Below are positions 13,714 through 38,070 of a DNA stretch of 64,000 bases, piece after piece. Source of the DNA: Dehalococcoidales bacterium (GTDB lineage: Bacteria; Chloroflexota; Dehalococcoidia; Dehalococcoidales; BS750m-G39); contig DAOULR010000004.1 of assembly GCA_034419075.1 (NCBI GenBank), positions 42,511 to 106,510 on the forward strand, given 5' to 3'. The number at the start of each line of letters is the position of its first letter. Within the stretch, counting starts at the first letter, position 1. A program made the position numbers and the translations under genes. The notes under the pieces are model-generated. The model ran no database searches. It was not told the origin of the DNA and was given only the letters and a program-made list of their open reading frames with translations.

Positions 13714-16398
13714 ATGACCGAGTCGACTGAAATGCATAGCGACATGCCCAAAGCCTATGAGCCGCAAAAAGTAGAGCGGAAGTGGTACCAGTTCTGGCTG
13801 GATAAGGGCTATTTCCGGGCCGAGATAGACCCCAAGAAAAAGCCCTTCGTCGTCATCATGCCCCTGCCCAACGTCACCGGCGGGCTGCACATGGGACACG
13901 TCTGCTTCCTCACTCCCGAAGACGTGATGACCCGCTGGCACCGCATGAAGGGGGACTCCGCCCTCTGGCTGCCGGGCATCGACCACGCTGGCATCGCCGC
14001 CCAGGTGGTGGTGGAGCAACAGCTGGCCCAGGAGGGGACGGACCGCCATAAGATAGGCCGAGAGAAGTTCCTGGGAAGAATGTATAAGTGGGCTAAGGAA
14101 TGCCGCCAGACGATAACCGAGCAGGAGCAGCGGGTAGGGGCTTCCTGCGACTGGAGTCGTGAGAAATTTACCCTGGAGGAGGGGCCGAGCCGAGCGGTGC
14201 GCACCGCCTTCGTCAGGCTCTACGAAAAGGGCTTAATCTACCGCGGGGAGCGCATCATCAACTGGTGCCCGCGCTGCGCCACGGCGCTTTCCGACCTGGA
14301 GACCGACCACAAGGACATACAGGGGAACCTCTACTACGTGCGCTATCCTTTGGTAGGTAGCGACGAGTTCATCACCGTAGCCACCACCCGCCCCGAAACG
14401 ATACTGGGGGATACGGCGGTGGCCGTCAATCCCAAGGACAAGCGCTTCAAGAGGGTGGTGGGTAAGAAAGTCATACTGCCCGCCGTCAAGCGCGAGATAC
14501 CGATTATCGCTGATGAGGCCGTTGACCCCGAGTTCGGCACGGGGGCGGTAAAGATTACCCCCGCCCACGACCCCGTTGACTTCGAGGTCGCCCAGCGCCA
14601 CGACCTGCCGCTGGTAAATATACTCAACCCTGACGTCACCATGAACGAAAACGCGGGCAAATATCAGGGACTTGACCGCTTCAAATGCCGCGAGGCGATA
14701 GTCGCCGACCTGAAAAAATCGGGGCAGCTGGTCAAGATAGAGCCCTACGGGCATTCGGTGGGTCACTGCATGCGCTGCCAGACAATTATCGAGCCCACCG
14801 CCAGCCGCCAGTGGTTCATCAAGACCGAGCCGCTGGCCAAGCCGGCCATAGAGGCTGTCACCAGCGGGCGCATCAACATTATCCCCGAGCGCTTCACCAA
14901 GGTCTACCTCAACTGGATGGAGAACATCCGCGACTGGTGTATCAGCCGCCAGCTCTGGTGGGGTCATAGAATACCCGTCTGGTACTGCGCGAAATGCGGC
15001 GAGCTGACGGTATCGGTGGACGAGGTCAAGAAGTGCGCCCACTGCGGCTCGGCCAAAGTGGAGCAGGACCCCGATGTGCTCGATACCTGGTTCTCCTCGG
15101 CGCTCTGGACTCACTCCACACTGGGCTGGCCCGACGACACCGAAGACCTGCGCTATTTCTACCCGACCACGGTGATGGAGACGGGCTACGACATCCTCTT
15201 TTTCTGGGTAGCCAGAATGATTATGATGGGGCTGGAGGACGTGGGCGATATCCCCTTCAGCACCGTTTACCTGCACGGTTTGTTGCGGGACGAGAAGGGA
15301 GAGAAGATGAGCAAGGTGAGGGGCAACGTGCTCGACCCGCTGGACACTATGGATAAATATGGCACCGACGCCCTGCGCTTTGCCCTTTCTACCGACGTCT
15401 CGCCGGGCAACGATATCAACCTGACCAAGGCCAGGCTGGAGGCGGGGCGAAACTTTGCCAATAAGCTCTGGAACGCCGCCCGCTTCGTGGTGAGAAGCCT
15501 TGAGAAAGAAGATATCGCTCTCGAAATCAAGCAGGAGGGGCTGGGGGTGGAGGAGCGCTGGATATTGAGCCGCCTTAGCCGCACCAACGCCAGCGTCGTC
15601 AAGCTGATGGATAACTTCCAGTTCGGCGAAGGCTTAAAGCAATTGCACGACTTTATCTGGGGGGAGTTCTGCGACTGGTATATCGAGTTCGCCAAGATTC
15701 GCCTCTCTGCTGGCGATAGTTCGCCATTACCAGTCCTGGTCTATGTGCTGGAAAACTCGCTGCGGCTGCTGCACCCCTTTATGCCCTTCATTACCGAGGA
15801 ATTGTGGCAGCAGCTAAAACAGCGCCTGCCCGCCGACTGGCAGAAGACTGACTCCATAATGATTGCCGCCTACCCTGAGGCCGATACAAAAGCCGTTGAC
15901 GCCGAGGCGGAGAAAGTCATGGAAGCCATAATTGATATAGTCCACAATATTCGTAATGTACGGGCGGAACACAAAGTGGAGGTCAACAAGTGGGTAGAGG
16001 CTGAGGTCTATGCTGGAGAGCTTACCTCTGCTATTGCCGAACATTCAACGACAATTCAGACGCTGGCCCGGGCAAGGCCGGTTAGTTTCCACGATATCCG
16101 TCAGGAAGGCGTTCAAATCCCGTCGGAGGGAAATGATAGAATAATAGTGCTTCCAAACGCGGTAACAGTCAGGATTCCTATGGAGAGCATGGTCGACCTC
16201 AATGCCGAGCGCAAGCGTCTTGAAGGTGAAATTGCCCGTAGCCAGGCATTAATTGCTTCGCTGGAAAGCAGGCTCAAGGATAAAGCCTTCCTGTCCAAAG
16301 CGCCATCGACGGTGGTGGCTAAAGAGCGGGAAAAGCTGGCCGAGCGAAAGGATAAGCTGAAGAGGCTGAGAGAGCAGCTGGGGCGCTTTAAGTCTTGA
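13714..16398 (+). CDS. valS: Valine--tRNA ligase
   Basis: 894 aa. Class I HIGH variant PNVTGGLHMGH, KMSKS as EKMSKVRGN, C-terminal coiled coil. Confidence 0.95.
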   Translation: MTESTEMHSDMPKAYEPQKVERKWYQFWLDKGYFRAEIDPKKKPFVVIMPLPNVTGGLHMGHVCFLTPEDVMTRWHRMKGDSALWLPGIDHAGIAAQVVVEQQLAQEGTDRHKIGREKFLGRMYKWAKECRQTITEQEQRVGASCDWSREKFTLEEGPSRAVRTAFVRLYEKGLIYRGERIINWCPRCATALSDLETDHKDIQGNLYYVRYPLVGSDEFITVATTRPETILGDTAVAVNPKDKRFKRVVGKKVILPAVKREIPIIADEAVDPEFGTGAVKITPAHDPVDFEVAQRHDLPLVNILNPDVTMNENAGKYQGLDRFKCREAIVADLKKSGQLVKIEPYGHSVGHCMRCQTIIEPTASRQWFIKTEPLAKPAIEAVTSGRINIIPERFTKVYLNWMENIRDWCISRQLWWGHRIPVWYCAKCGELTVSVDEVKKCAHCGSAKVEQDPDVLDTWFSSALWTHSTLGWPDDTEDLRYFYPTTVMETGYDILFFWVARMIMMGLEDVGDIPFSTVYLHGLLRDEKGEKMSKVRGNVLDPLDTMDKYGTDALRFALSTDVSPGNDINLTKARLEAGRNFANKLWNAARFVVRSLEKEDIALEIKQEGLGVEERWILSRLSRTNASVVKLMDNFQFGEGLKQLHDFIWGEFCDWYIEFAKIRLSAGDSSPLPVLVYVLENSLRLLHPFMPFITEELWQQLKQRLPADWQKTDSIMIAAYPEADTKAVDAEAEKVMEAIIDIVHNIRNVRAEHKVEVNKWVEAEVYAGELTSAIAEHSTTIQTLARARPVSFHDIRQEGVQIPSEGNDRIIVLPNAVTVRIPMESMVDLNAERKRLEGEIARSQALIASLESRLKDKAFLSKAPSTVVAKEREKLAERKDKLKRLREQLGRFKS

Positions 16399-16465: not shown

Positions 16466-16573
16466 TTAGTCTTCCCACTTACCGCCTTTACCGATACGGG
16501 TGAAGCAGAAAACCAAGCCGACGATAAACACCAAACTCATAACAATCGTAGTGACTATGGCCGCTGTTGTCAT
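16466..16573 (-). CDS. 35-aa single-TM micro-protein, candidate NSS-transporter small subunit (MetS-like)
   Basis: Hand translation: MTTAAIVTTIVMSLVFIVGLVFCFTRIGKGGKWED. Its ATG overlaps the transporter stop (ATGA, 16570-16573). Below the ORF-track length cutoff. Confidence 0.55.
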   Translation of the reverse strand: MTTAAIVTTIVMSLVFIVGLVFCFTRIGKGGKWED

Positions 16574-18105
16574 TTCTCCTTCACCTCCTTGGCTAGCTTA
16601 GGCCCTCGGGTCTTGGCGGCTTGCAGCCAGAAGCTAAAGCCCAGCGTGGCGACCAGTATTATCCATATGATATGAGAGCCGTTTAGTGGCCCGATCATAT
16701 AGCCGCCGTAGCCGGGATCGGGTATGTCGTTCTTGAAGCCGCCGTAGATGACCACAAAGAGCAGTCCGGCGGGCACGACGACTTTAATCAGCCAGTCGAA
16801 CCAGGCTCCGACCTTGAAGTCCGAGGTCGCGTTGATGTGCTCTCTGAGCTTCTTGGCGCCGTAGAACCAGCCGACGACAATACAGGCCAGGGCGCCGGTT
16901 ATAAGTAGTCCGTAGAAGGCGGTAGCTCTATCTACCATATCTAACCAGTAGAGACCGCCACCGGTACAGTAAAGGAGACCGATAACGAGGCCGAGAGCAC
17001 AGATAAAGGCGGTGACTTTGGCCCGACCCCAGCCGAATTTATCCCGCAGCGGGGCGATAACACCACCGTAGGTCAGGAAGAAGGCCGAATCTATGCCCAG
17101 GAAGAAGAAGCAGACGAAGAAGATGACCCCCGTAACGGCCGCCATAGCCGGCATCATGGAGATTGCCACCGGGTAGGTAACAAAAGCCAGTCCTAAACCG
17201 GAAGCGCTGACCTCGCCCACCGGGATAGACAGCGCCTGCATGATGAAGCCGACGATACTGAATACGGCAAAGCCAGCGAAGAAGCTGGTAGCGCAGTTGG
17301 TAAACGAGGTGATGAAGGCGTTGTTGTTGATGTCAGCTTTCTTGGCGACAAAGCTGCCGTAGGCGAACATCCCGGCCATGCCCAGTGAAAGAGTAAAGGC
17401 AATCTGGCTGAAGGCCCCGAACCATAAATCGGGATTGCTCAGGGCACCCCAATCCGGCGCCAGATAGTAGTTGAGCCCGTCAACTGCTCCTGGTAGCGTC
17501 AACCCCCTTATCAGCAGGACAATGAGCAAAGCCCAGGGGATGATTACCGTCCAGACGGCGACCCTGCCAATTACCTTGGCCCCTTTGAACATGATGAAGA
17601 ACAGGATGATCCAGACTCCTGCTAGGGCGCCGACTATGGGCCACTGCAGACCGCCGAGAGCGGTGGGTCCGGAGGAAAGGTTCAGTACGTCCCCGAAGAA
17701 ATAACCGGCGGCTCCGGACGCGCCGGCCTCACCTGTTCCCCAGGCAACGGTAGCCGAGCTAGCCGCATAGTTCAGGGACCAGGATATGACCACGGAGTAG
17801 TAGGTGACGATGAGGAAGGCAACGAAGACGGGCCACCAGCCCAGCCATTCCCACTTCTTGCTGATGCCTTCGAATACGCCGGGAGAGCCTTTCTGGAAAA
17901 GGCGCCCCATGCCGAACTCCATCATCATCCAGGGGATGCCCAGGATAATAAGGCCGATAATCCAGGCAATCAAAAAGGCTCCGCCACCATATTCATAGGT
18001 CAAATAGGGGAATCGCCAGACATTGCCCAGACCTATTGCGGAGCCCATCGCGGCGAACAGGAAAAAAGCCCTGCCGCCCCATCTTTCCCTTGTTAGTTCC
18101 GCCAA
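16570..18105 (-). CDS. Sodium-dependent neurotransmitter:sodium symporter (NSS/SNF) family transporter
   Basis: 511 aa, TTG start behind AAAGGAGG. Signature GLGNVWRFPY. About 12 TM segments. Confidence 0.9.
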   Translation of the reverse strand: MAELTRERWGGRAFFLFAAMGSAIGLGNVWRFPYLTYEYGGGAFLIAWIIGLIILGIPWMMMEFGMGRLFQKGSPGVFEGISKKWEWLGWWPVFVAFLIVTYYSVVISWSLNYAASSATVAWGTGEAGASGAAGYFFGDVLNLSSGPTALGGLQWPIVGALAGVWIILFFIMFKGAKVIGRVAVWTVIIPWALLIVLLIRGLTLPGAVDGLNYYLAPDWGALSNPDLWFGAFSQIAFTLSLGMAGMFAYGSFVAKKADINNNAFITSFTNCATSFFAGFAVFSIVGFIMQALSIPVGEVSASGLGLAFVTYPVAISMMPAMAAVTGVIFFVCFFFLGIDSAFFLTYGGVIAPLRDKFGWGRAKVTAFICALGLVIGLLYCTGGGLYWLDMVDRATAFYGLLITGALACIVVGWFYGAKKLREHINATSDFKVGAWFDWLIKVVVPAGLLFVVIYGGFKNDIPDPGYGGYMIGPLNGSHIIWIILVATLGFSFWLQAAKTRGPKLAKEVKEK

Positions 18106-18242: not shown

Positions 18243-18956
18243 TTACTCGCCTAAAAGCGGGATGTCAATAGTCTGCCGCTCGAATCCGTTGCGGCTTAAC
18301 CGTTCCAGCGCCTTTTTAGTGTCGCTGGCGACCCTGGCCTTGTCGCACTGCTGGAGCCGATATTTAAAGAGCCAGTAGTTGAATTCCTTAAGCTCGGCCA
18401 GGCTGGTGGACTTGAGCTGGGGGTAGCGTTTTTGGCGGCGGAAGCGCTTGAGCAGTATCGCCTTGGTTGAGCCGTAGATGCGGCGGTAGGCCTCGTTGGC
18501 CAGGTTCTCTTCACCAGCGTAGCCGGAGATGCGTTTTTCCTTGCGTACCTCTTCCTGCACCGCTTGGAGCAATGCCTCTTCCACGGTGACGCCGTAGAAA
18601 TAGTTGAGGTACTGGTGGTATTTGCCACTGCCGATGAGCTTCTTGAACTCTTTGGCGTTCATCTTTACCGGTGGCCGGCCGTTAAAGAGCAGGGCAACCC
18701 TTTCTTCTTCGGGGATGAGTTTTGCGACCTCACGGCAGAGCCTTTCCGCCAGCAGCAGCCAATCAAAGGCCTCGCCGTCGATGAGGTAGCGGTAGTGGCG
18801 TCCCTTATAATTTTCTTCGGCACTGGTCCAGAGGGCGATGGCTCCGAGCAGGGCGATATACCAGTTTTTGCCGCTGGCTATCTCCTGTTTGAGGTGGGTG
18901 ATAGCCCGGTTGTCGGCGGTGGGGGTTGTTTCGGTGGCTATCAGTTGGTTGTCCAC
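18243..18956 (-). CDS. Hypothetical protein (237 aa), no recognised domain
   Basis: Long ORF with host-like GC, last gene of the string following secA. Charged C-terminal half (KRFRRQKRYPQLK...). The antisense ORF 18564..18977 is rejected. Confidence 0.6.
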   Translation of the reverse strand: MDNQLIATETTPTADNRAITHLKQEIASGKNWYIALLGAIALWTSAEENYKGRHYRYLIDGEAFDWLLLAERLCREVAKLIPEEERVALLFNGRPPVKMNAKEFKKLIGSGKYHQYLNYFYGVTVEEALLQAVQEEVRKEKRISGYAGEENLANEAYRRIYGSTKAILLKRFRRQKRYPQLKSTSLAELKEFNYWLFKYRLQQCDKARVASDTKKALERLSRNGFERQTIDIPLLGE

Positions 18957-18962
18957 GGGTTT

Positions 18963-19232
18963 TCAGTCCTGTGGTGATTCGGCCTTGAGCTTTTCGTAGT
19001 ATTCGAGCTTGCCGGTGGTTACCATCTCGGTCAGTTTTTTGCTGATGGCTTCGCCGGCGCCGGGGATTTCGTTTAAGCGGTTTTCTTTGACTAATTGCTC
19101 CACGGGCACGGGCAGGCTTTCAATTGAGCGGGCCACCTTCTGGTAGGCCCTGATTTTGAAGATATTCTCCTTTTTGGCCATGAGCCTTTGGGCGATGTCG
19201 TCAAAGATGGCGGATATCTCTGAGTTTTTCAT
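18963..19232 (-). CDS. Stand-alone helix-hairpin-helix protein resembling the PolX/Pol-beta N-terminal 8-kDa domain
   Basis: Start at ATG 19230-19232 (MKNSEISAIFDDIAQRLMAKKENIFKIRAYQKVARSIESLP...LNEIPGAGEAISKKLTEMVTTGKLEYYEKL). Pattern recalled from PolX N-termini. The track start 19322 would overlap the upstream gene. Confidence 0.55.
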   Translation of the reverse strand: MKNSEISAIFDDIAQRLMAKKENIFKIRAYQKVARSIESLPVPVEQLVKENRLNEIPGAGEAISKKLTEMVTTGKLEYYEKLKAESPQD

Positions 19233-19242
19233 GAGGATACCA

Positions 19243-19467
19243 CTAAATTTCCTCGAACTTAGACACTCCCCAAGCGTGGCACTCGGGGCAACCGACTGGT
19301 TGGCCGATTTCTGCATCGCCAAAGTCTCTGTTCTTCACCCAGTCGGGGCAATCCTCGATATATTCGGGTGCTTCCTCGTTCGAGGCAACGCAATAGCTAT
19401 AATCAGTGAATTGGTAAATCAGCTTGTTCCCACTATAGCCGCAGTTCAAACACTTATATTGCATCAT
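19243..19467 (-). CDS. Zinc-ribbon protein (74 aa)
   Basis: CLNC near the N-terminus and CPEC near the C-terminus (MMQYKCLNCGY...GCPECHAWG). Acidic middle. Sits in the AT-richer islet with the EVE gene. Confidence 0.55.
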   Translation of the reverse strand: MMQYKCLNCGYSGNKLIYQFTDYSYCVASNEEAPEYIEDCPDWVKNRDFGDAEIGQPVGCPECHAWGVSKFEEI

Positions 19468-19509
19468 ATCTCCTCCTACAATTTTCTCATCCCCTTTGCC
19501 TCCGAGATA

Positions 19510-20325
19510 TTAAATGCCAAGCCCCTTTTCGAAATCCATATAAGATTTCTTGCGGTTATAGAGTTCTTCTACCTTATCCAATTCAATAGGTTTCACGTAA
19601 TCTCTAATTTCGTGAAAAGTCCCTGAGAGCAAATTCTCAGCCTTTTTGAGGTCTGCCTCGGATGCCACGATAAAAATACGGCTGTTCCATAAATCAAAAG
19701 CGTGTTTCAGTTTCGCTAATGCGTGATAAATATCCCCGCCAACTTGAACCTCAAAGACGTATGTAGGTACAGAATTTGTTACTCTTCTCCAGACGACGTC
19801 TAGTTTTCCTATATCAAATTGGTATTCTTGTTCGGCAATAAAGTTTTGGAGTTTACCGATTTCAATTAATTTTTGTTTAACTTGCTGGTGTAAAGATAAG
19901 GCTTGTTCAGCGCTGGGCGTTGGAGCTGGTTGGAGTTGCGAAACCATCTGTTGTGCAAATTCTGGCTCTAGCGAATGAAAGCCCATCCCAGCCTTAAGTT
20001 TTAAGGCATCGGAGGTTACTTGCTGCGTATTCCATGCATTAGGCGGGAGGCAATAACCCACGTTAAATTCGAAACGTAGCGGCCATTTTACGTTTCCCTC
20101 AGAAATTTCTTGGGGCCAAAGTGGTCTATCTTGCCGAAATTTGGCTTGAACGGTGCCGTATCCAATCAGTCCACTAATGGGCTTTGTGACGTAGAATAGT
20201 ACTAAGTCATTCTCGGCAAGACCATTCCACCAATGTTTTTGCCTTGTGGTTAGGCCCCAAATACCTCCTTGCTCCAAAGCAATTTCCCAATTTTCAGGAG
20301 GGCCCACAGCTAGCCAGTAATTCAT
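19510..20325 (-). CDS. EVE/ASCH-type PUA-like domain fused to a restriction-endonuclease-like C-terminal domain (candidate modification-dependent nuclease)
   Basis: 271 aa. N-terminal MNYWLAVGPPENWEIALEQGGIWGL...NDLVLFYVTKPISGLIGYGTV fits the EVE/PUA-like pattern. C-terminal GKLDVVW...YVFEVQVGG resembles a D...ExK/Q nuclease core. Visibly AT-rich. RBS GGAGGTGA overlaps the secA stop. Confidence 0.6.
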   Translation of the reverse strand: MNYWLAVGPPENWEIALEQGGIWGLTTRQKHWWNGLAENDLVLFYVTKPISGLIGYGTVQAKFRQDRPLWPQEISEGNVKWPLRFEFNVGYCLPPNAWNTQQVTSDALKLKAGMGFHSLEPEFAQQMVSQLQPAPTPSAEQALSLHQQVKQKLIEIGKLQNFIAEQEYQFDIGKLDVVWRRVTNSVPTYVFEVQVGGDIYHALAKLKHAFDLWNSRIFIVASEADLKKAENLLSGTFHEIRDYVKPIELDKVEELYNRKKSYMDFEKGLGI

Positions 20326-20328
20326 TCC

Positions 20329-22987
<2,659 letters not shown>

Positions 22988-22995
<8 letters not shown>

Positions 22996-23233
22996 TTTCT
23001 TCTTCCCCGATTAACCTTCTGGCCTCCTCGGCTTTCGATTCGCTGACCATGACCTTATACTCCCCCATCCCGTCCACCGTGAATACGTGCACGGAGGGCG
23101 CGGCATGGGATTTGAGGATGGAGGGTATGCCGTTAGCCTCCAGCAGGCTCTTGATGATGAGGGCATCGGCTTCGCCGAGAGCCTTATATACTTCCACTAG
23201 TTTTAGCTGTTTGCCCATATTGTCTCTATTCAA
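22988..23233 (-). CDS. DUF2007-like small protein
   Basis: 81 aa (or 76 from MGKQ at 23218). LVEVYKALGEADALIIKSLLEANGIPS...KVMVSESKAEEARRLI fits the DUF2007 pattern. Overlaps the secA start by 8 nt. Confidence 0.55.
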
Positions 23234-24164
23234 ACATAGCCCCGATAGATAGCCCGGTATGGATGCGGTGGATGGCTTCGCCCAGCAGCGGGGCTATGGG
23301 CAGGACGGTAATCTTATCCAGCTTCTTTTTGCCGCCAATGGGGACGGTGTCGGTGACCACCACCTCTTTGATGGGGGCGTCGGCTATCTTTTGTACCGCC
23401 GAGCCGGAGAATATGGGGTGGGTGCAACAGGCGTATGTCTCCTTGACGCCGCGCTTTTCCAGCGCCTTAACCACGCTTATCAAAGAGCCAGCGGTGTCTA
23501 TCTCGTCGTCCACGGTGAGGGCCACCTTGCCGGATACCTCACCGATGACGTTCATCGTTTCCGCCTCATCAAGGTTGCCTATCCGCCTCTTTTCCATGAT
23601 GGCCAGGGAGGCATCAAGTGCGGCGGCCAGGTCCCGCGCCCGCTTGGTGATGCCGATATCGGTGGCGACTACCACCAGGTCTTTGAGATTCTTGGCCTTG
23701 AAGTAGTTGACGAAGAGCTTAAGGGCGGTGAGCTCGTCGACGGGTATGTTGAAGAAACCCTGAATCTGGGCGGCGTGCAGGTCCACCGTAAGCAGGCGGT
23801 TGGCGCCGGCCACAGTGAGCAAATCGGCCACCAGTCGGGCCGTTATGGGTACGCGGGGCTGGTCTTTCTTGTCGGTGCGCCCGTAGCCGTAGTGCGGGAC
23901 AACGGCGGTGATACGCCCCGCCGAGGCTCGCTTCAGGGCGTCGAGCATGATGAGCAGCTCTACCAGGTTGTTGTTTACCGGCGAGCAGAGAGGCTGGATA
24001 ACGAAGGTGTCCCGCTGGCGGACGTTTTCCAGGATGCGGACGAATATATTCTCGTTCTTGAAGGTGAAAACCTCGCATTTTCCCAGTGGTATCTTGAGAT
24101 ATTCCGCCACCGCTTTGGCCAGGGTAGGGTGGGCATTACCGGTGAATACCTTTAGCTCATCCAT
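23226..24164 (-). CDS. prs: Ribose-phosphate pyrophosphokinase
   Basis: 312 aa. PRPP-synthetase motifs (GYGRTDKK, VDLHAAQIQGFF, PRPP-binding loop DDEIDTAGS). Confidence 0.92.
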   Translation of the reverse strand: MDELKVFTGNAHPTLAKAVAEYLKIPLGKCEVFTFKNENIFVRILENVRQRDTFVIQPLCSPVNNNLVELLIMLDALKRASAGRITAVVPHYGYGRTDKKDQPRVPITARLVADLLTVAGANRLLTVDLHAAQIQGFFNIPVDELTALKLFVNYFKAKNLKDLVVVATDIGITKRARDLAAALDASLAIMEKRRIGNLDEAETMNVIGEVSGKVALTVDDEIDTAGSLISVVKALEKRGVKETYACCTHPIFSGSAVQKIADAPIKEVVVTDTVPIGGKKKLDKITVLPIAPLLGEAIHRIHTGLSIGAMFE

Positions 24165-32061: not shown

Positions 32062-32802
32062 TTACTTTGGTTTTGTGTTAGAAGAATTAAATTGGACTAA
32101 TGCATTCCAATTTATTGCACCGTTAGTTACAAATTTATCACTGAACTCGGATGTAAATCTATTCACTATTTGAGCATATTCTTTGTAAAACTCCGAGTTC
32201 CTCTGTTTAGCCGAATGTCCGAGAGGCTCAATTATCTTTAGGTATAAATCGGGATTACCGGAAATGAACTCCCAGAACGTTTGACCACAATATTTAAAAT
32301 AATCACCTTTGTCAGGTTTTGAATCCCGTCCATAACAACATCCGTTCACAGATACTATATGTATGTTAGAATTGCTAGTGCGGAGGGTCTTCTGTGCCTT
32401 TCGGAAATCTTCTTTCATTTTTCTGATCTGGCTGCTATTACCCCAGTTTGGTCCTGACTTAATCGCTATGATGAAACGGGTCCTGTCCTTATCGAATTCT
32501 AAATCTATGCCTTGTGCGGACGATTTCCAGCCACCATATACTTTTTTATTTATGAAAATGGCCAATCCTTCGAGGAAATCCCCAAATATAGTCTCCTCCT
32601 GTGAGGATAAGTAAGCGTCAAGTAGGATTCTAACTAGGTCTTGAGCAAGCAGTATATTTTTTGCTTTGAATAGATACGGGTTTTTCCTCCGTAGCACAGT
32701 ATTGAGTTTTAGTTTCTTAATACTTTCCAACCTAGCTTTGTGAAAGCTACCAATATTCCCTTTTACGTATTCGCTAACCTCTGTTATTTCAATAGAGCCC
32801 AT
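32062..32802 (-). CDS. Putative type II restriction endonuclease (246 aa)
   Basis: Immediately downstream of, and overlapping (19 nt), a DNA methyltransferase gene in a strongly AT-rich islet. No catalytic motif confidently assigned. Family not recognised from memory. Confidence 0.55.
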   Translation of the reverse strand: MGSIEITEVSEYVKGNIGSFHKARLESIKKLKLNTVLRRKNPYLFKAKNILLAQDLVRILLDAYLSSQEETIFGDFLEGLAIFINKKVYGGWKSSAQGIDLEFDKDRTRFIIAIKSGPNWGNSSQIRKMKEDFRKAQKTLRTSNSNIHIVSVNGCCYGRDSKPDKGDYFKYCGQTFWEFISGNPDLYLKIIEPLGHSAKQRNSEFYKEYAQIVNRFTSEFSDKFVTNGAINWNALVQFNSSNTKPK

Positions 32803-33656
32803 GAGTCCATTTTCCTGGCTTTGACGTTATTTTTTGTCTCCCAGATTTCAATCGAGTCCTGCGCTAATTGGTAGTAGTTATCCATTGTTTCTATGCCAAT
32901 GTAGTGTCTCTTTAGATTCAAACAGGCGATTGCAGTTGTTCCTGAGCCTATAAATGGATCAAGTACTACATCATCTTCCTTGGTAAATAATTTTATAAAC
33001 CAGGTGGGTAGAGATATGGGAAAAGAAGCACTATGCCCACGGTTAGCGCACTCTGTAGGAAGATGTAACACATTGGTAGGATAAACATACTTTTTCCCAA
33101 GCCAATTTGAGATATTTTTACCAAAGCCACTGCCGACTTTGGATTCGTCTCTTATGAGATCTGTTGCGCTAAGTTTAGATAGTCTCTTTTTACTCCAATT
33201 ACCTATTGGAACCATGACGGCTTCTTGGTACATATTAAATTTCTTCTGCTTATTGAATTGTAAGCATCTTTCCCACGCATCTCTGAAACGGTTAGGCCAT
33301 TTCCCAGGATAGCAGTTTTTCTTATGCCAGATATATTCTTCTGTCCAGAGCCAACCTTGTTTTTTCATTTCAAGTATTAACTCAAGTACATATGTCTGGC
33401 GTTCGCCATTTTCTGCCCTTTCTTTAATGTTTAGGATAAAAGTGCCGTCATTTTTTAGGACGCGTTTTAACTCTGAAGATATTGGTAAAAACCAGTTTAC
33501 ATAGTTCTTAATTGGGATCCCTTTATATGTTTTTTTCCGATTGTCGGCGTAAGGTGGCGATGTGAATATGAGGTCAACACATGAGTTTGGAAGTGTTTTT
33601 AATTGTTCGAGAGAATTGCCCTTTAAAATGCTGTCTAGTTCAAACATTGTTGACAA
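32784..33656 (-). CDS. Beta-class DNA amino-methyltransferase (N4-cytosine or N6-adenine)
   Basis: 290 aa. Motif IV FTSPPYA near the N-terminus and motif I DPFIGSGTT near the C-terminus (beta permutation). SPPY favours N4-cytosine specificity. Confidence 0.85.
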   Translation of the reverse strand: MSTMFELDSILKGNSLEQLKTLPNSCVDLIFTSPPYADNRKKTYKGIPIKNYVNWFLPISSELKRVLKNDGTFILNIKERAENGERQTYVLELILEMKKQGWLWTEEYIWHKKNCYPGKWPNRFRDAWERCLQFNKQKKFNMYQEAVMVPIGNWSKKRLSKLSATDLIRDESKVGSGFGKNISNWLGKKYVYPTNVLHLPTECANRGHSASFPISLPTWFIKLFTKEDDVVLDPFIGSGTTAIACLNLKRHYIGIETMDNYYQLAQDSIEIWETKNNVKARKMDSWALLK

Positions 33657-36197: not shown

Positions 36198-36232
36198 GCT
36201 GATAGCTTAGCAACCTAATACCAGGAGACGTC

Positions 36233-36266
36233 GGGGAGGGGCGTTTACCCCTCCCTGATTTTTTTA
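36233..36266. terminator. Bidirectional hairpin terminator
   Basis: GGGGAGGGG-CGTTTA-CCCCTCCC followed by T7. Lies between convergent dodecin and the 36264-36530 gene. Confidence 0.65.
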
Positions 36267-36530
36267 TGATTGGGAGTATTTGCGGCAGCCGTACCAGTAA
36301 ACAACCCAGAACGTCAGCCCGTAGCCAGCTATCCTGACGGCGTACAGGAGGCCTTCCAGCGTCTCTTTCAGGTCGAGGAGGGTGAACAGGTGCGAGACGC
36401 CGAAGAACCCGAAGGCGGCGCCCAGCAGCAGGGCCCACGTCCTTCGATTTTTGATGTAGGCGGTGACGCCCATGGAGAGGATGATGACGCAGAAGATGAA
36501 GTTGGTGAGGATTTGGGGGTCTATATCCAT
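36264..36530 (-). CDS. Small three-TM membrane protein (88 aa)
   Basis: MDIDPQILTNFIFCVIILSMGVTAYIK... hydrophobic helices. No family recognised. Confidence 0.5.
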   Translation of the reverse strand: MDIDPQILTNFIFCVIILSMGVTAYIKNRRTWALLLGAAFGFFGVSHLFTLLDLKETLEGLLYAVRIAGYGLTFWVVYWYGCRKYSQS

Positions 36531-36573
36531 TTTTAGCTCCTTTGGGGGGAAGGTTGGGCTACTGCGAGGATTA

Positions 36574-37215
36574 CTATTTAATTAGCTGAAGTGCCCTTCT
36601 AGGCCTTATTACTTCGAGATGATATCTTTCCCTTAATTCTTTCCCGAGGTTTAGAAGGTCTCCATCCATAGTTACAAAATACGCTGCCTTCTGTAATATT
36701 GCGGTTATAACCAGTATTGCATCTTGAGTTCTTAGCGTAGGATAGAGAAAGACTAGGGAAGAGTAGATGTCAAAGTAATCTGCTGTATCAGATGGGGTAG
36801 TTGTCGATATTATTTCAATTTTACGCTCGAATAAAGTATCGAATCCCTTCGAAGCTAATTCATAAAGCTTTCTTGAGAGTTCCTGTGGGAAACTAACTTC
36901 TTTTGTCTCCCTTTTATAGCTCCATCTAGAGATTGGTATTCCTTTCGTGAACATAATAATACTGCGAACTTCATCTCTTATGCCTGAAAATACTTCTGAT
37001 AAGGAAAGCTCGGTGACTAAAAGTTGCTGGTTGTTATCTGAAAGTTCCAACGCTCTATCAATGAAATCACACGATTCCTTGTATCGGTTTCTGTAGACGT
37101 CCCCAAATTCTTGGGCTAAATGGAACTCCTGTGTCACGAATTCCATAACCTTGTTGGTCATCAGCCAGTGGACTATTACGTTTGTATCTATGAGCCACTT
37201 GTGTATAGTAGCCAT
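36574..37215 (-). CDS. Enlarged PIN-like domain protein (213 aa)
   Basis: N-terminal LIDTNVIVHWL (first PIN acidic residue). Further acidic positions in VTELSLSEV, TQDAILV, TMDGD. About 80 aa longer than a typical VapC. AT-rich. Confidence 0.6.
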   Translation of the reverse strand: MATIHKWLIDTNVIVHWLMTNKVMEFVTQEFHLAQEFGDVYRNRYKESCDFIDRALELSDNNQQLLVTELSLSEVFSGIRDEVRSIIMFTKGIPISRWSYKRETKEVSFPQELSRKLYELASKGFDTLFERKIEIISTTTPSDTADYFDIYSSLVFLYPTLRTQDAILVITAILQKAAYFVTMDGDLLNLGKELRERYHLEVIRPRRALQLIK

Positions 37216-37352
37216 TACTTCTTTGTCCGCTTTTTAGGAGACCAAAGACCTTTTATCTGTCCCCTTTGACCTCCGCTCGTAGTCTTCCCTCTTACGGAGT
37301 AATATTTCTTAGTAACGGGGTTATATATTCTTTTAGTCCTTCTACTTGCCAT
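37215..37352 (-). CDS. 45-aa ultra-basic micro-ORF overlapping the PIN start
   Basis: Hand translation: MASRRTKRIYNPVTKKYYSVRGKTTSGGQRGQIKGLWSPKKRTKK. Its stop overlaps the PIN ATG (TAATG). GAGG lies 11 nt upstream. Confidence 0.45.
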   Translation of the reverse strand: MASRRTKRIYNPVTKKYYSVRGKTTSGGQRGQIKGLWSPKKRTKK

Positions 37353-37411
37353 TAAACTAGACCTCATTGATTAGCTTTTTATAAAAATCTTTCCCTGTTT
37401 GATTGGCATGT

Positions 37412-37531
37412 TTACTCTGGGGTAGACCTGCGGAAAGGCTTTACTGTGACCGTTTTCCGTGTCTTACCTGGCTTAGCTCTTTTGTATTCACGTACAGGGA
37501 CAATCTTCTTTCCTTCTTTTGTCTTGGCCAC
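37412..37531 (-). CDS. 39-aa ultra-basic micro-ORF, paralog of 37215-37352
   Basis: GTG start 8 nt after AAAGGAGG: (M)AKTKEGKKIVPVREYKRAKPGKTRKTVTVKPFRRSTPE. Shares [KR]I..PV...Y....GKT with the neighbouring micro-ORF. Confidence 0.45.
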   Translation of the reverse strand: MAKTKEGKKIVPVREYKRAKPGKTRKTVTVKPFRRSTPE

Positions 37532-37578
37532 TATAACCACCTCCTTTTTGTTTACTCCCCCCAAATATTATACCACCC

Positions 37579-38070
37579 CTAATCCCCTTTCCCCTCCCCA
37601 CCCTCAACCTCCTCAGCAATGCCGATGCGCTTCACCGAAAGGGGCACATAGTTGACCATCTTGCACTCAATCAGGTCTTTAAGCTCCTTCTCGGCGGGAG
37701 TAAGCGCCGCCTTTTCCGTCTTGACCTCGATGAAGTCAACGCCCTCGCCGTACTTGATGCCGACGAAGTCAACGGGCTCGCCGCCGAGATAAAAGAGACG
37801 GTCATAATGCGTCAGCTCCAGAGTGGCCAATAGCTCGTTGAGCTTACCCGCCCTGACGGCCTCGCTGGAGGTAATAGATTTGAGGACATCGCGGGGCAGG
37901 CTTTCCAAAATGCGCTGAATCTCCCGCACCGAGTCCGCCGAAGCCAGAGCGAAGCGCAGCTTTTCGGCCAGCTGGTCAACGTCGGTGGCGGGGGCCTTCC
38001 TCATCCGAAAGATTAAGACTATGATTACAATGACGAGGAGGAAGATTACGGCCAGGAGGGCGTATTCCAT
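37579..38070 (-). CDS. Membrane-anchored endonuclease-like protein related to archaeal Holliday-junction resolvase (COG4741-like)
   Basis: 163 aa. N-terminal TM helix. C-terminal GGEPVDFVGIKYGEGVDFIEVKTEKAALTPAEKELKDLI, with an E-x-K core as recalled for COG4741. Confidence 0.55.
   Translation of the reverse strand: MEYALLAVIFLLVIVIIVLIFRMRKAPATDVDQLAEKLRFALASADSVREIQRILESLPRDVLKSITSSEAVRAGKLNELLATLELTHYDRLFYLGGEPVDFVGIKYGEGVDFIEVKTEKAALTPAEKELKDLIECKMVNYVPLSVKRIGIAEEVEGGEGKGD

Follow-up and report, generated by a model that had tools for sequence, protein, structure and literature searches.

What kind of gene has been placed directly behind secA in this Dehalococcoidales bacterium, and does it belong to an anti-phage system? 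The window analyzed here is a stretch of 64,000 nt (GCA_034419075.1, DAOULR010000004.1, positions 42,511-106,510, forward strand), in which secA is followed on the minus strand by a gene for a 271-aa protein, designated EVE-X, and then by one for a 74-aa protein, designated ZnR74. EVE-Y denotes an alternative fusion found in the same slot, and L numbers are labels of the compared relatives' loci, with L094 being the nearest relative. As developed below, EVE-X most likely belongs to an already known type of anti-phage enzyme, as predicted from its sequence and modeled fold. The features of the locus are as follows.

20329-22995, minus strand: secA, from the ORF call.
20326-20345, minus strand: end of secA (K H C C G R), TGA stop, and 3-nt spacer, read directly.
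19510-20325, minus strand: EVE-X ORF, 271 aa, from the ORF call.
19479-20325, minus strand: 847-bp cassette exchanged relative to L094, comprising the EVE-X gene and a further 31 nt on its 3' side, from blastn.
19936-20325, minus strand: EVE-X residues 1-130, EVE/YTH/ASCH-type PUA-like domain, a predicted modified-base reader (AF2, Foldseek).
19513-19914, minus strand: EVE-X residues 138-271, a long linker helix and then a predicted restriction-endonuclease-like (PD-(D/E)xK-fold) domain (AF2, Foldseek).
19243-19467, minus strand: ZnR74, 74-aa zinc-ribbon protein (ORF call, 28 homologs).
18963-19232, minus strand: 89-aa ORF with HHH_8 only, a DNA polymerase X (PolX) remnant bounding the slot on its right (Pfam, NCBIfam).
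18243-18956, minus strand: orf237, a conserved protein, given for context only (tblastn).

Direct reading of the junction (...TGT TGT GGG AGG TGA GGA ATG) confirmed the proposal of the first-pass annotation that the ribosome-binding site of EVE-X is built from the end of secA and its stop codon. A GGAGG lies inside the final secA codons, 6 nt before the EVE-X ATG, and this ATG stands 3 nt past the secA stop. The identical junction type was found ahead of EVE-X in L018, L032, L095, and L174, and ahead of another gene, Zn61, in L094 and L081. Because the junction serves a different first gene in the latter two loci, the arrangement of stop, 3 to 5 nt, and ATG is a property of the slot and not of the EVE-X gene. 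Whichever gene comes first in the slot would be cotranscribed with secA and translated from a Shine-Dalgarno sequence that the Gly-Arg-stop codons of secA provide. Intergenic gaps from secA through orf237 measure 3, 42, 10, and 6 nt, and a search for a minus-strand terminator between these two genes found none. At the far end of the slot, the 89-aa remnant matched Pfam HHH_8 (5e-17) and the NCBIfam model for PolX, and full-length PolX of 571-574 aa occupies its place in L081, L100, L101, and L090. In tblastn searches, orf237 always lay after PolX and before valS, an order kept at 18 loci from genomes and at many from metagenomes.

Comparison of the window with L094 by blastn gave approximately 85% DNA identity on both sides of the cassette and nothing between. 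L094 carries 1170 bp in the same place (Zn61 and EVE-Y), without similarity to the 847-bp cassette of the window. The breakpoints of the swap fall at the secA stop, where collinearity with L094 ends at position 20326, and just upstream of the ZnR74 ribosome-binding site. Neither an integrase nor repeats were seen at these breakpoints, and the replacement is ORF-precise. A third type of content, a type II methyltransferase (PADLOC, 3e-95) together with an HNH type II restriction enzyme (2e-7), was found in L101, L104, and L099; a defense-type context is supported because the slot holds these two genes in sister genomes. The secA-PolX interval is a swap-prone restriction-cassette slot and not a one-off islet. 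Near-identical flanks enclosing three different restriction-type cassettes constitute a natural experiment, and streamlined Dehalococcoidia genomes evidently keep a swap-prone defense slot wired to secA.

The EVE-X gene itself has been exchanged horizontally as an AT-rich cassette. Its ORF shares 83.7% DNA identity with EVE-X of L081, at a locus where secA shares only 72.7%, and horizontal exchange is supported because the ORF is closer to L081 than its flanks are. As the first annotation had noted, the ORF is AT-richer than secA, with a GC content of 0.429 (GC3, 0.40) compared to 0.604 (GC3, 0.80). Measured against 816-bp windows of the 64 kb, EVE-X has a GC z score of −2.8, within the lowest 3.3%, and in 71 of 78 loci the gene is AT-richer than its flanks, with a mean difference of 8 GC points. 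All slot cassette types have a GC content of 0.40-0.44, and the flanks have one of 0.50-0.60.

A selfish homing-type endonuclease gene that spreads into preferred sites without benefit to its host could also leave such a pattern. ORF-precise replacement lacking a visible integrase or repeats, AT richness everywhere, the adjoining truncated methyltransferase or restriction enzyme genes at some loci, and the presence of I-Bth0305I, a PD-(D/E)xK homing endonuclease, among the fold matches all speak for this explanation. The slot, however, also takes the unrelated EVE-Y and the methyltransferase-HNH pair, and because unrelated cassettes fill it too, it is a general hotspot rather than a homing site of EVE-X. 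Strong purifying selection acts across the whole protein, EVE domain included, and modified-base readers are not usual in homing enzymes. We consider the homing explanation very unlikely and return to EVE-X as a predicted anti-phage enzyme.

The N-terminal half had been assigned to the EVE/ASCH PUA-like domains from its pattern of residues. Sequence-level evidence for an EVE-like domain is weak: Pfam EVE (PF01878) gave EVE-X 18.1 bits (E = 0.0028), short of its gathering score of 23, NCBIfam PRK00809 matched at 4e-7, the PDB sequence match was UPF0310 (E = 0.027), and the EVE-X family profile matched PH1033 at 9e-5. Many close homologs carry a precomputed PF01878 match. The assignment is clear by fold, as the AF2 model of residues 1-130 (pLDDT of about 87-90) retrieved PH1033 (1.8e-7) and MJECL36 (4.7e-6) from the PDB with Foldseek, followed by YTHDF2, YTHDC1, Mmi1, ASCH, and the EVE domain of VcaM4I (6yex). 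The modeled N-terminal half thus clearly adopts an EVE/YTH-type PUA fold. EVE domains take up a flipped modified base in a hydrophobic or aromatic pocket, to which W4, W13, W23, and W70, all invariant in the family alignment, and the nearly invariant Y45 and F44 may contribute.

For the C-terminal half, profile searches of Pfam, NCBIfam, PADLOC, PHROGs, and PDB returned no match, and the protein as a whole has no model in PADLOC, PHROGs, or Pfam. This domain was modeled separately because Foldseek with the full-length query gave N-terminal domain matches only. The resulting AF2 model (pLDDT 92) has the topology alpha-beta-beta-beta-alpha-beta-alpha-beta-alpha, with elements H2-22, E26-33, E36-43, E52-57, H62-76, and E79-84, and contains the alpha-beta-beta-beta-alpha-beta core of PD-(D/E)xK nucleases. 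The nuclease-like character suggested earlier therefore held up, and a non-nuclease fold was not what the model revealed. In the viral library BFVD, Foldseek matched a PD-(D/E)XK nuclease (5.5e-4) and a restriction endonuclease (1.3e-3) with TM scores of 0.5-0.6, as well as MmcB-like, VRR-NUC, Mrr, and Vsr proteins, the last weakly. Among solved structures, the top PDB matches (R2 RLE, Can2, 3ijm, I-Bth0305I, and EcoT38I) were weak, none falling below an E value of 0.02, and shared the same fold. The models support the view that EVE-X joins an EVE reader and a restriction-endonuclease-fold domain in one protein. The same C-terminal domain occurs elsewhere joined to HARE-HTH, DUF1802, or DUF5655, and also stands alone.

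Conservation of the C-terminal domain was counted over 131 diverse representatives sharing 50% identity or less. D176, on strand 2, was kept in all 131 and E192, on strand 3, in 128; position 194, a Gln in EVE-X, was Q in 93, H in 27, and otherwise N or E. Lys never occurred there; this domain family does without the canonical Lys of (D/E)xK. K207, which together with K205 lies on the helix after strand 3, was kept in 123. The first-pass annotation had described a D-x14-E-V-Q arrangement: D176 and E192-V-Q194 are present and conserved, but the spacing is x15. Candidate active-site residues are E167, D176, E192, Q194, and K205/K207, and it is plausible from the alignment that EVE-X has a known variant of the D...(D/E)xK pattern in which K207 or K205 may stand in for Lys. 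The type II enzyme BglII has a D...E-x-Q active site and is active with this ExQ variant. It resembles EVE-X in carrying Gln at the canonical Lys position, in the third motif, and differs from it in its sequence specificity, in being paired with a methyltransferase, and in lacking a reader domain.

The missing Lys, with Q, H, N, or E in its place, and the weak matches to solved nuclease structures would also suit a catalytically dead domain, leaving EVE-X as a DNA- or RNA-binding regulator only. Against this, conservation of D176, E192, and K207 at 94-100% is hard to explain without catalysis, and BglII provides an active precedent; we regard a dead domain as highly improbable.

Taken as an active enzyme, EVE-X probably represents an uncharacterized family of the known EVE-nuclease class, with a predicted role in type IV-like (modification-dependent) restriction. 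The EVE domain would recognize incoming DNA by flipping and binding a modified base, and nearby cleavage would fall to the C-terminal domain via D176 and E192, with Q194 in place of the canonical Lys and K205/K207 of the next helix completing the active site. By analogy to VcaM4I, the nuclease may be kept in check by the linker helix. Anti-phage or modification-dependent activity is what we infer for EVE-X; its target could be RNA.

The architecture has precedents. Bell, Wolf and Koonin (2020; PMC7641849, section 9, Fig. 7) list EVE-PD(D/E)XK among the predicted type IV architectures, and EVE-X resembles this class in its N-terminal EVE reader and predicted C-terminal restriction-endonuclease-fold domain on a single polypeptide, in a fast-diverging EVE domain found mainly by sensitive methods, and in its defense-type context. 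It differs in that its C-terminal domain has no Pfam nuclease match and carries E-x-Q/H in place of (D/E)xK. Another precedent is the EVE-HNH enzyme VcaM4I, which flips 5mC and 5hmC (PMC7897488). Together with TspA15I (PMC6765204), it shares with EVE-X the order of EVE domain, linker helix, and nuclease and, as a rule, the lack of a cognate methyltransferase adjoining the gene; the nuclease of these enzymes is HNH, in contrast to the PD-(D/E)xK fold predicted for EVE-X, and the specificity of VcaM4I for 5mC and 5hmC has been demonstrated, whereas modified-base reading by EVE-X is a prediction. YenY4I (EVE-DUF3427-PD-(D/E)XK; PMC6765204, section 18) likewise combines a PUA-superfamily reader with a PD-(D/E)XK catalytic domain, but it is longer (approximately 600 aa), has a nuclease of the DUF3883 type, and carries DUF3427 as a middle domain, compared to 271 aa and no middle domain in EVE-X. 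The UPF0310 proteins PH1033 and MJECL36 (PDB 1wmm and 2p5d), which match the N-terminal domain best in both sequence and structure, are stand-alone archaeal EVE proteins of approximately 145 aa without a nuclease domain.

EVE-Y (L094:5024-5989) also combines an EVE/DCD-like N-terminal domain with a nuclease, is AT-rich, and sits in the post-secA slot ahead of the same zinc-ribbon gene, but it has a canonical D...E-L-K motif. Only the N-terminal domains of EVE-X and EVE-Y aligned with hhalign, and weakly (E = 4.6e-4, probability 33%); profile comparison found no alignment of the C-terminal halves, and homology of the two nuclease domains therefore cannot be called. If the prediction for EVE-X is true, it defines a compact, 271-aa modification-dependent nuclease family from poorly studied anaerobes, with a divergent catalytic domain (E-x-Q plus helix Lys) that is missed by current domain or defense databases and with a modified-base specificity possibly useful as a reagent.

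The search yielded 1715 full-length homologs, and the EVE-X ORF is therefore not a chance reading frame. In a collection of 185,579 species, each represented by a single genome, 122 relatives were found, ranging over Chloroflexota, Acidobacteriota, Zixibacteria, Planctomycetota, and archaea; the family is rare and patchy across several bacterial phyla and archaea. The placement behind secA, which had been considered unusual, is shared by approximately 30 Dehalococcoidia species genomes, and this widespread position rules out a recent one-off islet. Pairwise distances in secA correlated well with those in prs (r = 0.87) and less with those in EVE-X (r = 0.56, Spearman 0.32). This weak congruence, together with the swap relative to L094, rules out strictly vertical inheritance at the secA locus. 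Horizontal acquisition, as first proposed, is borne out by the clean swap, the low GC content of the family, the weak congruence with secA, and the pattern of identity to L081. Searches of IMG/VR, PLSDB, and INPHARED turned up no relative and hence no transfer vehicle. A search of a limited literature collection returned no paper on the EVE-X family, the zinc-ribbon family, or a secA-linked hotspot.

Synteny after secA in so many species, combined with high conservation (mean column identity of 57%), could also be expected of a housekeeping protein that reads modified RNA, has an RNase-like effector domain, and is kept beside secA for coexpression. Homologs bear the JGI label "predicted RNA-binding protein," the fold matches include YTH domains, which read m6A in RNA, the core family never varies at Y200, H201, K205, and K207, and slow-evolving housekeeping EVE proteins have been described by Bell et al. 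(PMC7641849). Yet the nearest relative has another cassette in place of EVE-X, the family's rarity among species genomes and weak congruence with secA fit poorly, the slot alternates with restriction-modification systems, and Y200 and H201 are not conserved across the wider C-terminal domain family. A housekeeping gene at a conserved secA-linked position would further be expected to have host-like composition; the position is indeed widespread, but the composition of EVE-X is never host-like and the slot's contents are swapped. We judge the housekeeping explanation to be quite unlikely and retain modification-dependent restriction as the preferred reading.

PADLOC-DB v2 gave no significant match to EVE-X, the sole match being PDC-M12A (E = 0.011, 40 residues). 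Roughly 8 to 11 of 48 loci away from secA adjoin methyltransferase or type II restriction enzyme ORFs, with a methyltransferase beside EVE-X in L041, L049, L065, and L066. EVE-X may be read as a type II restriction-modification accessory that is an orphan in the window; it could sense the methylation state or, like Vsr beside Dcm, be a nicking enzyme directed to lesions or mismatches. Its gene overlaps an upstream N6_N4 methyltransferase-like ORF in L041, L049, and L066, an overlap that one would not expect if the enzyme were purely modification-dependent; in L041 the gene is flanked by a methyltransferase and NgoMIV, and in L062, L068, and L056 it adjoins EcoO109I-family enzymes; the window's own genome has an N6_N4 methyltransferase and an EcoO109I-family enzyme at 32062-33656; and Vsr is among the weak fold matches. 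At most loci, however, no methyltransferase adjoins EVE-X, which applies to the window (nearest at 32784-33656) and to all secA-linked loci, and the truncated-looking restriction-modification ORFs next to EVE-X in L065 and L056 fit decaying defense loci better than a working partnership. An accessory role is unlikely in our view. The window's EVE-X is a predicted reader-nuclease fusion without a cognate methyltransferase, and its slot provides a variable, horizontally exchanged defense-locus context, both of which agree with type IV-like restriction.

The 74-aa CxxC...CxxC protein following EVE-X had been put forward as its partner. ZnR74 is present as described, with its own AGGAGG ribosome-binding site, and its cysteines C6, C9, C60, and C63 are invariant in 28 homologs, as is C26. 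A partnership with EVE-X did not survive the neighborhood survey: a ZnR74 homolog stood beside EVE-X in none of 80 genome loci, which rules out a conserved pairing. PADLOC-DB v2 contains no match to ZnR74. In the window's lineage the gene is part of the conserved right flank, with approximately 85% DNA identity to L094, the same as the flanks. The family is small and recurs behind unrelated restriction genes, its upstream neighbors including HNH, HinfI, HinP1I, a type III Res subunit, and both EVE fusions. ZnR74 may be a portable accessory of restriction cassettes, possibly controlling nuclease expression or activity, and as such is a candidate missing small component of restriction systems. 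Only tentatively, and with more doubt than confidence, do we suggest that the post-secA slot is a dedicated dock that couples unrelated restriction cassettes to an essential gene, with ZnR74 as its portable accessory.

The 271-aa protein EVE-X, which has an EVE-type N-terminal half and a nuclease-fold C-terminal half, is encoded in the window within the following gene order.

Genes around secA in the window
23226-24164, minus strand, prs
22988-23233, minus strand, DUF2007 protein
20329-22995, minus strand, secA
19510-20325, minus strand, EVE-X, 271-aa ORF
19243-19467, minus strand, ZnR74, 74-aa four-cysteine zinc-ribbon ORF
18963-19232, minus strand, HHH_8-only ORF, 89 aa
18243-18956, minus strand, orf237
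16570-18105, minus strand, SNF-family transporter
13714-16398, plus strand, convergent, valS

The genes from secA to orf237 are separated by 3, 42, 10, and 6 nt, and no terminator-like site was found on the minus strand over this interval. The secA/EVE-X junction reads ...TGT TGT GGG AGG TGA GGA ATG. EVE-X has a GC content of 0.429 (GC3 0.40) compared to 0.604 (GC3 0.80) for secA, and lies 2.8 SD under the window mean. ORFs, junction, and GC were re-read in the window, and the AT-rich islet reported by the first-pass annotation was confirmed; its spacing of 14 residues between D176 and E192 was wrong, as 15 were counted. The HHH_8-only ORF is a remnant of DNA polymerase X (PolX), for which full-length genes (571-574 aa) occupy the matching place in the related loci L081, L100, L101, and L090. 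Because the truncated form is conserved in L083, L093, and L094 (83-86% amino acid identity), it may still be functional. Between PolX and valS, orf237 is conserved at a constant position in the clade, with 56-74% amino acid identity across genome loci and at most 82% in the nearest metagenome relatives, and no family match was found for it. The SNF-family transporter sits between orf237 and valS as an insertion that is common only to the nearest relatives, L093 and L094 (88-90% amino acid identity), and is missing from the remaining syntenic loci.

The EVE-X gene is one interchangeable cassette of a defence slot, the interval between secA and PolX, that is wired to secA. EVE-X was located downstream of secA in about 30 Dehalococcoidia genomes, in a frame consisting of prs, the DUF2007 protein, secA, a variable stretch, EVE-X, a small ORF, PolX, orf237, and valS. 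Pairwise distances of secA correlated with those of prs at r = 0.87 and with those of EVE-X at r = 0.56 (Spearman 0.32). Identity to the window copy of EVE-X was 57-60% in the closest secA relatives and 68-74% in more distant genomes, and DNA identity between the window and L081 was 83.7% for the EVE-X ORF versus 72.7% for secA. Over two stretches of the window, 24999 to 20326 and 19478 to 13258, the metagenome contig L094 aligns collinearly at about 85% DNA identity, and the aligned parts take in the truncated PolX as well as the SNF transporter. In place of the intervening 847 bp of the window, L094 has 1170 bp without similarity, coding for Zn61 (61 aa, cysteine-rich) and EVE-Y, a different EVE-like protein with a canonical D...E-L-K motif. 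In L101, L104, and L099, the slot is occupied by an N6/N4 methyltransferase and an HNH enzyme; PADLOC assigns the first to the type II methyltransferases (3e-95) and the second to the type II restriction enzymes (2e-7). Every cassette type has a GC content of 0.40-0.44, against 0.50-0.60 in the flanks. The junction of secA stop, 3-5 nt, and ATG, with its GGAGG or GGAAGG drawn from secA Gly-Arg codons, is conserved irrespective of whether the first gene is Zn61, as in L094 and L081, or EVE-X, as in the window, L018, L032, L095, and L174. The earlier interpretation of an acquired defence module piggybacking on secA is partly supported: the secA linkage is real, yet belongs to the slot.

The secA-to-EVE-X gap ranges from 7 to 1567 nt across Dehalococcoidia genomes and holds small cysteine-rich ORFs, an FmdB zinc ribbon, coiled-coil ORFs, and toxin-antitoxin pairs. 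From their translations, read without a family search, the pair at L016:5014-5608 is taken to be an antitoxin with a PIN-type toxin and that at L006:340-842 to be HicB/HicA-like; such pairs add to the evidence that mobile cargo builds up in this interval. Zn61 belongs to a cysteine-rich family of 61-70 aa (TCDKCG...YACHxDCWDG; L081:2802-2987, L094:4821-5003, and 13 genome loci) that is absent from the window and gave no match in Pfam, PHROGs, or PADLOC. In many relatives a Zn61 gene directly follows secA, preceding EVE-X or EVE-Y. Between EVE-X and PolX, most genome loci carry a family of 75-81 aa (MLDR...EDDYYEWLKDNFKSFF...PDW; L081:3857-4102, L032:6894-7121, and 18 genome loci), in place of which the window has ZnR74.

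A protein search recovered 1715 full-length EVE-X homologs of about 270 aa, annotated at best as 'hypothetical' or 'predicted RNA-binding protein', and an alignment of 49 sequences contained fifty invariant positions. Matches to EVE at the sequence level were weak. In the AlphaFold model (pLDDT 87), the N-terminal domain most resembled the stand-alone EVE proteins PH1033 and MJECL36, followed by YTH, ASCH, and the EVE domain of VcaM4I. The C-terminal 134 residues, modeled separately (pLDDT 92), form a long helix and then the beta-beta-beta-alpha-beta core typical of PD-(D/E)xK nucleases. Solved structures gave weak matches (best E 0.02), the top ones nearly all of restriction-endonuclease fold (R2 RLE, Can2, 3ijm, I-Bth0305I, EcoT38I, YaeQ, and Mus81). 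Predicted viral structures matched better and uniformly, as PD-(D/E)XK nuclease (5.5e-4), restriction endonuclease (1.3e-3), and MmcB-like, VRR-NUC, Mrr, and Vsr proteins. Conservation, counted over 131 of 521 clusters, was 113/131 for E167, 131/131 for D176, 128/131 for E192, 103/131 for K205, and 123/131 for K207, with position 194 being Q in 93 and H in 27. The resulting motif, E...D...E-x-Q followed by a Lys-rich helix, is a plausible non-canonical candidate nuclease site; E-x-Q is in use in BglII. A profile of the C-terminal domain alone recovered these clusters, 521 or more at the 50% identity level, and the domain family is unannotated. It occurs behind HARE-HTH or DUF1802, in front of DUF5655, and alone in proteins of about 140 aa (proteins P0263, P0291, P0247, P0215, and P0249), and these varied fusions are the behaviour of effector nuclease modules.

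Scanning one genome per species yielded 122 EVE-X relatives, the majority in Dehalococcoidia and other Chloroflexota and the others in Acidobacteriota, Zixibacteria, Planctomycetota, Saccharibacteria, Gammaproteobacteria, and several archaea; none were found in IMG/VR, PLSDB, or INPHARED. An archaeal copy is 57% identical to the window protein, as close as the copies of the window's nearest secA relatives. In 71 of 78 loci the GC content of EVE-X lies below that of the flanks, by a mean of 8 points and a maximum of 23. Outside Dehalococcoidia its neighbours are heterogeneous, and roughly 8-11 of 48 loci adjoin restriction-modification ORFs: overlapping ORFs in the order methyltransferase, EVE-X, NgoMIV (L041), an overlapping methyltransferase (L049, L066), Eco29kI-family (L047) or EcoO109I-family (L062, L068, L056) ORFs, and a truncated methyltransferase (L065). 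Signs of decay were seen near some copies, namely, a 134-aa N-terminal methyltransferase fragment abutting EVE-X (L065:5569-5973), a 123-aa EcoO109I-like fragment after it (L056:6971-7342), and an EVE-X split into two ORFs (L077:2626-3594).

On this evidence EVE-X is best placed as an uncharacterised family within the EVE-plus-nuclease class. Proteins of that class have been described before as predicted type IV restriction enzymes (PMC7641849, section 9), and the EVE-HNH protein VcaM4I is the studied precedent (PMC7897488). The fold, conservation, mobility, and context of EVE-X are shown; its substrate, modification specificity, and catalysis we infer. Four rival readings together fall somewhat short of an even chance: a housekeeping RNA reader, an accessory of restriction-modification systems or a repair nuclease, a homing gene of the selfish kind, and a binding protein without catalysis. 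The main value of the locus lies in a clean cassette-swap slot, an unannotated nuclease domain family, and a zinc-ribbon rider.

That rider, ZnR74, had been proposed as a partner of EVE-X. Only 28 homologs were present in the protein collection, none of 80 genome loci with EVE-X had one, and in the window's lineage ZnR74 is part of the conserved right flank. Scanning for ZnR74 relatives added another 80 loci. Same-strand upstream neighbours in the 79 informative loci were an HNH enzyme (20 loci, in most cases preceded by a methyltransferase), EVE-Y (18), a methyltransferase (4), EVE-X (3, with two more from the window and L174), an 86-aa protein (3), and other ORFs (31), including R.HinP1I, a type III Res helicase, GHKL ATPases, and a recurrent coiled-coil protein of about 90 aa. 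The 86-aa protein comes after a HinfI system in L085/L086, the only context fully read. ZnR74 is accordingly a rider of restriction cassettes generally in this census, but not the partner of the EVE-X family, and any role for it would be putative. The coiled-coil protein (about 85-100 aa; ...KERKSWSGAKGP...LKELILIKQQILYRIEDAKLLKDKREESFN...) recurs immediately 5' of ZnR74-family genes (L113:5217-5525, L115:5593-5895, L116, L121, L124, L125, L137, and L141), and similar ORFs lie in the secA/EVE-X gap of L020, L001, L033, and L034.

Elsewhere in the window, a type II restriction-modification pair adjoins uvrB (32062-33656, minus strand; GC 0.37, the most AT-rich stretch), comprising an N6_N4 methyltransferase (Pfam 5.9e-46) and an EcoO109I-family endonuclease (1.5e-90) that is 72% identical to the ORF directly after EVE-X in L062. 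Another AT-rich islet (36201-38070, GC minimum 0.39) encodes a PIN-domain protein (36574-37215) and an 'endonuclease related to archaeal Holliday junction resolvase' protein (37579-38070).
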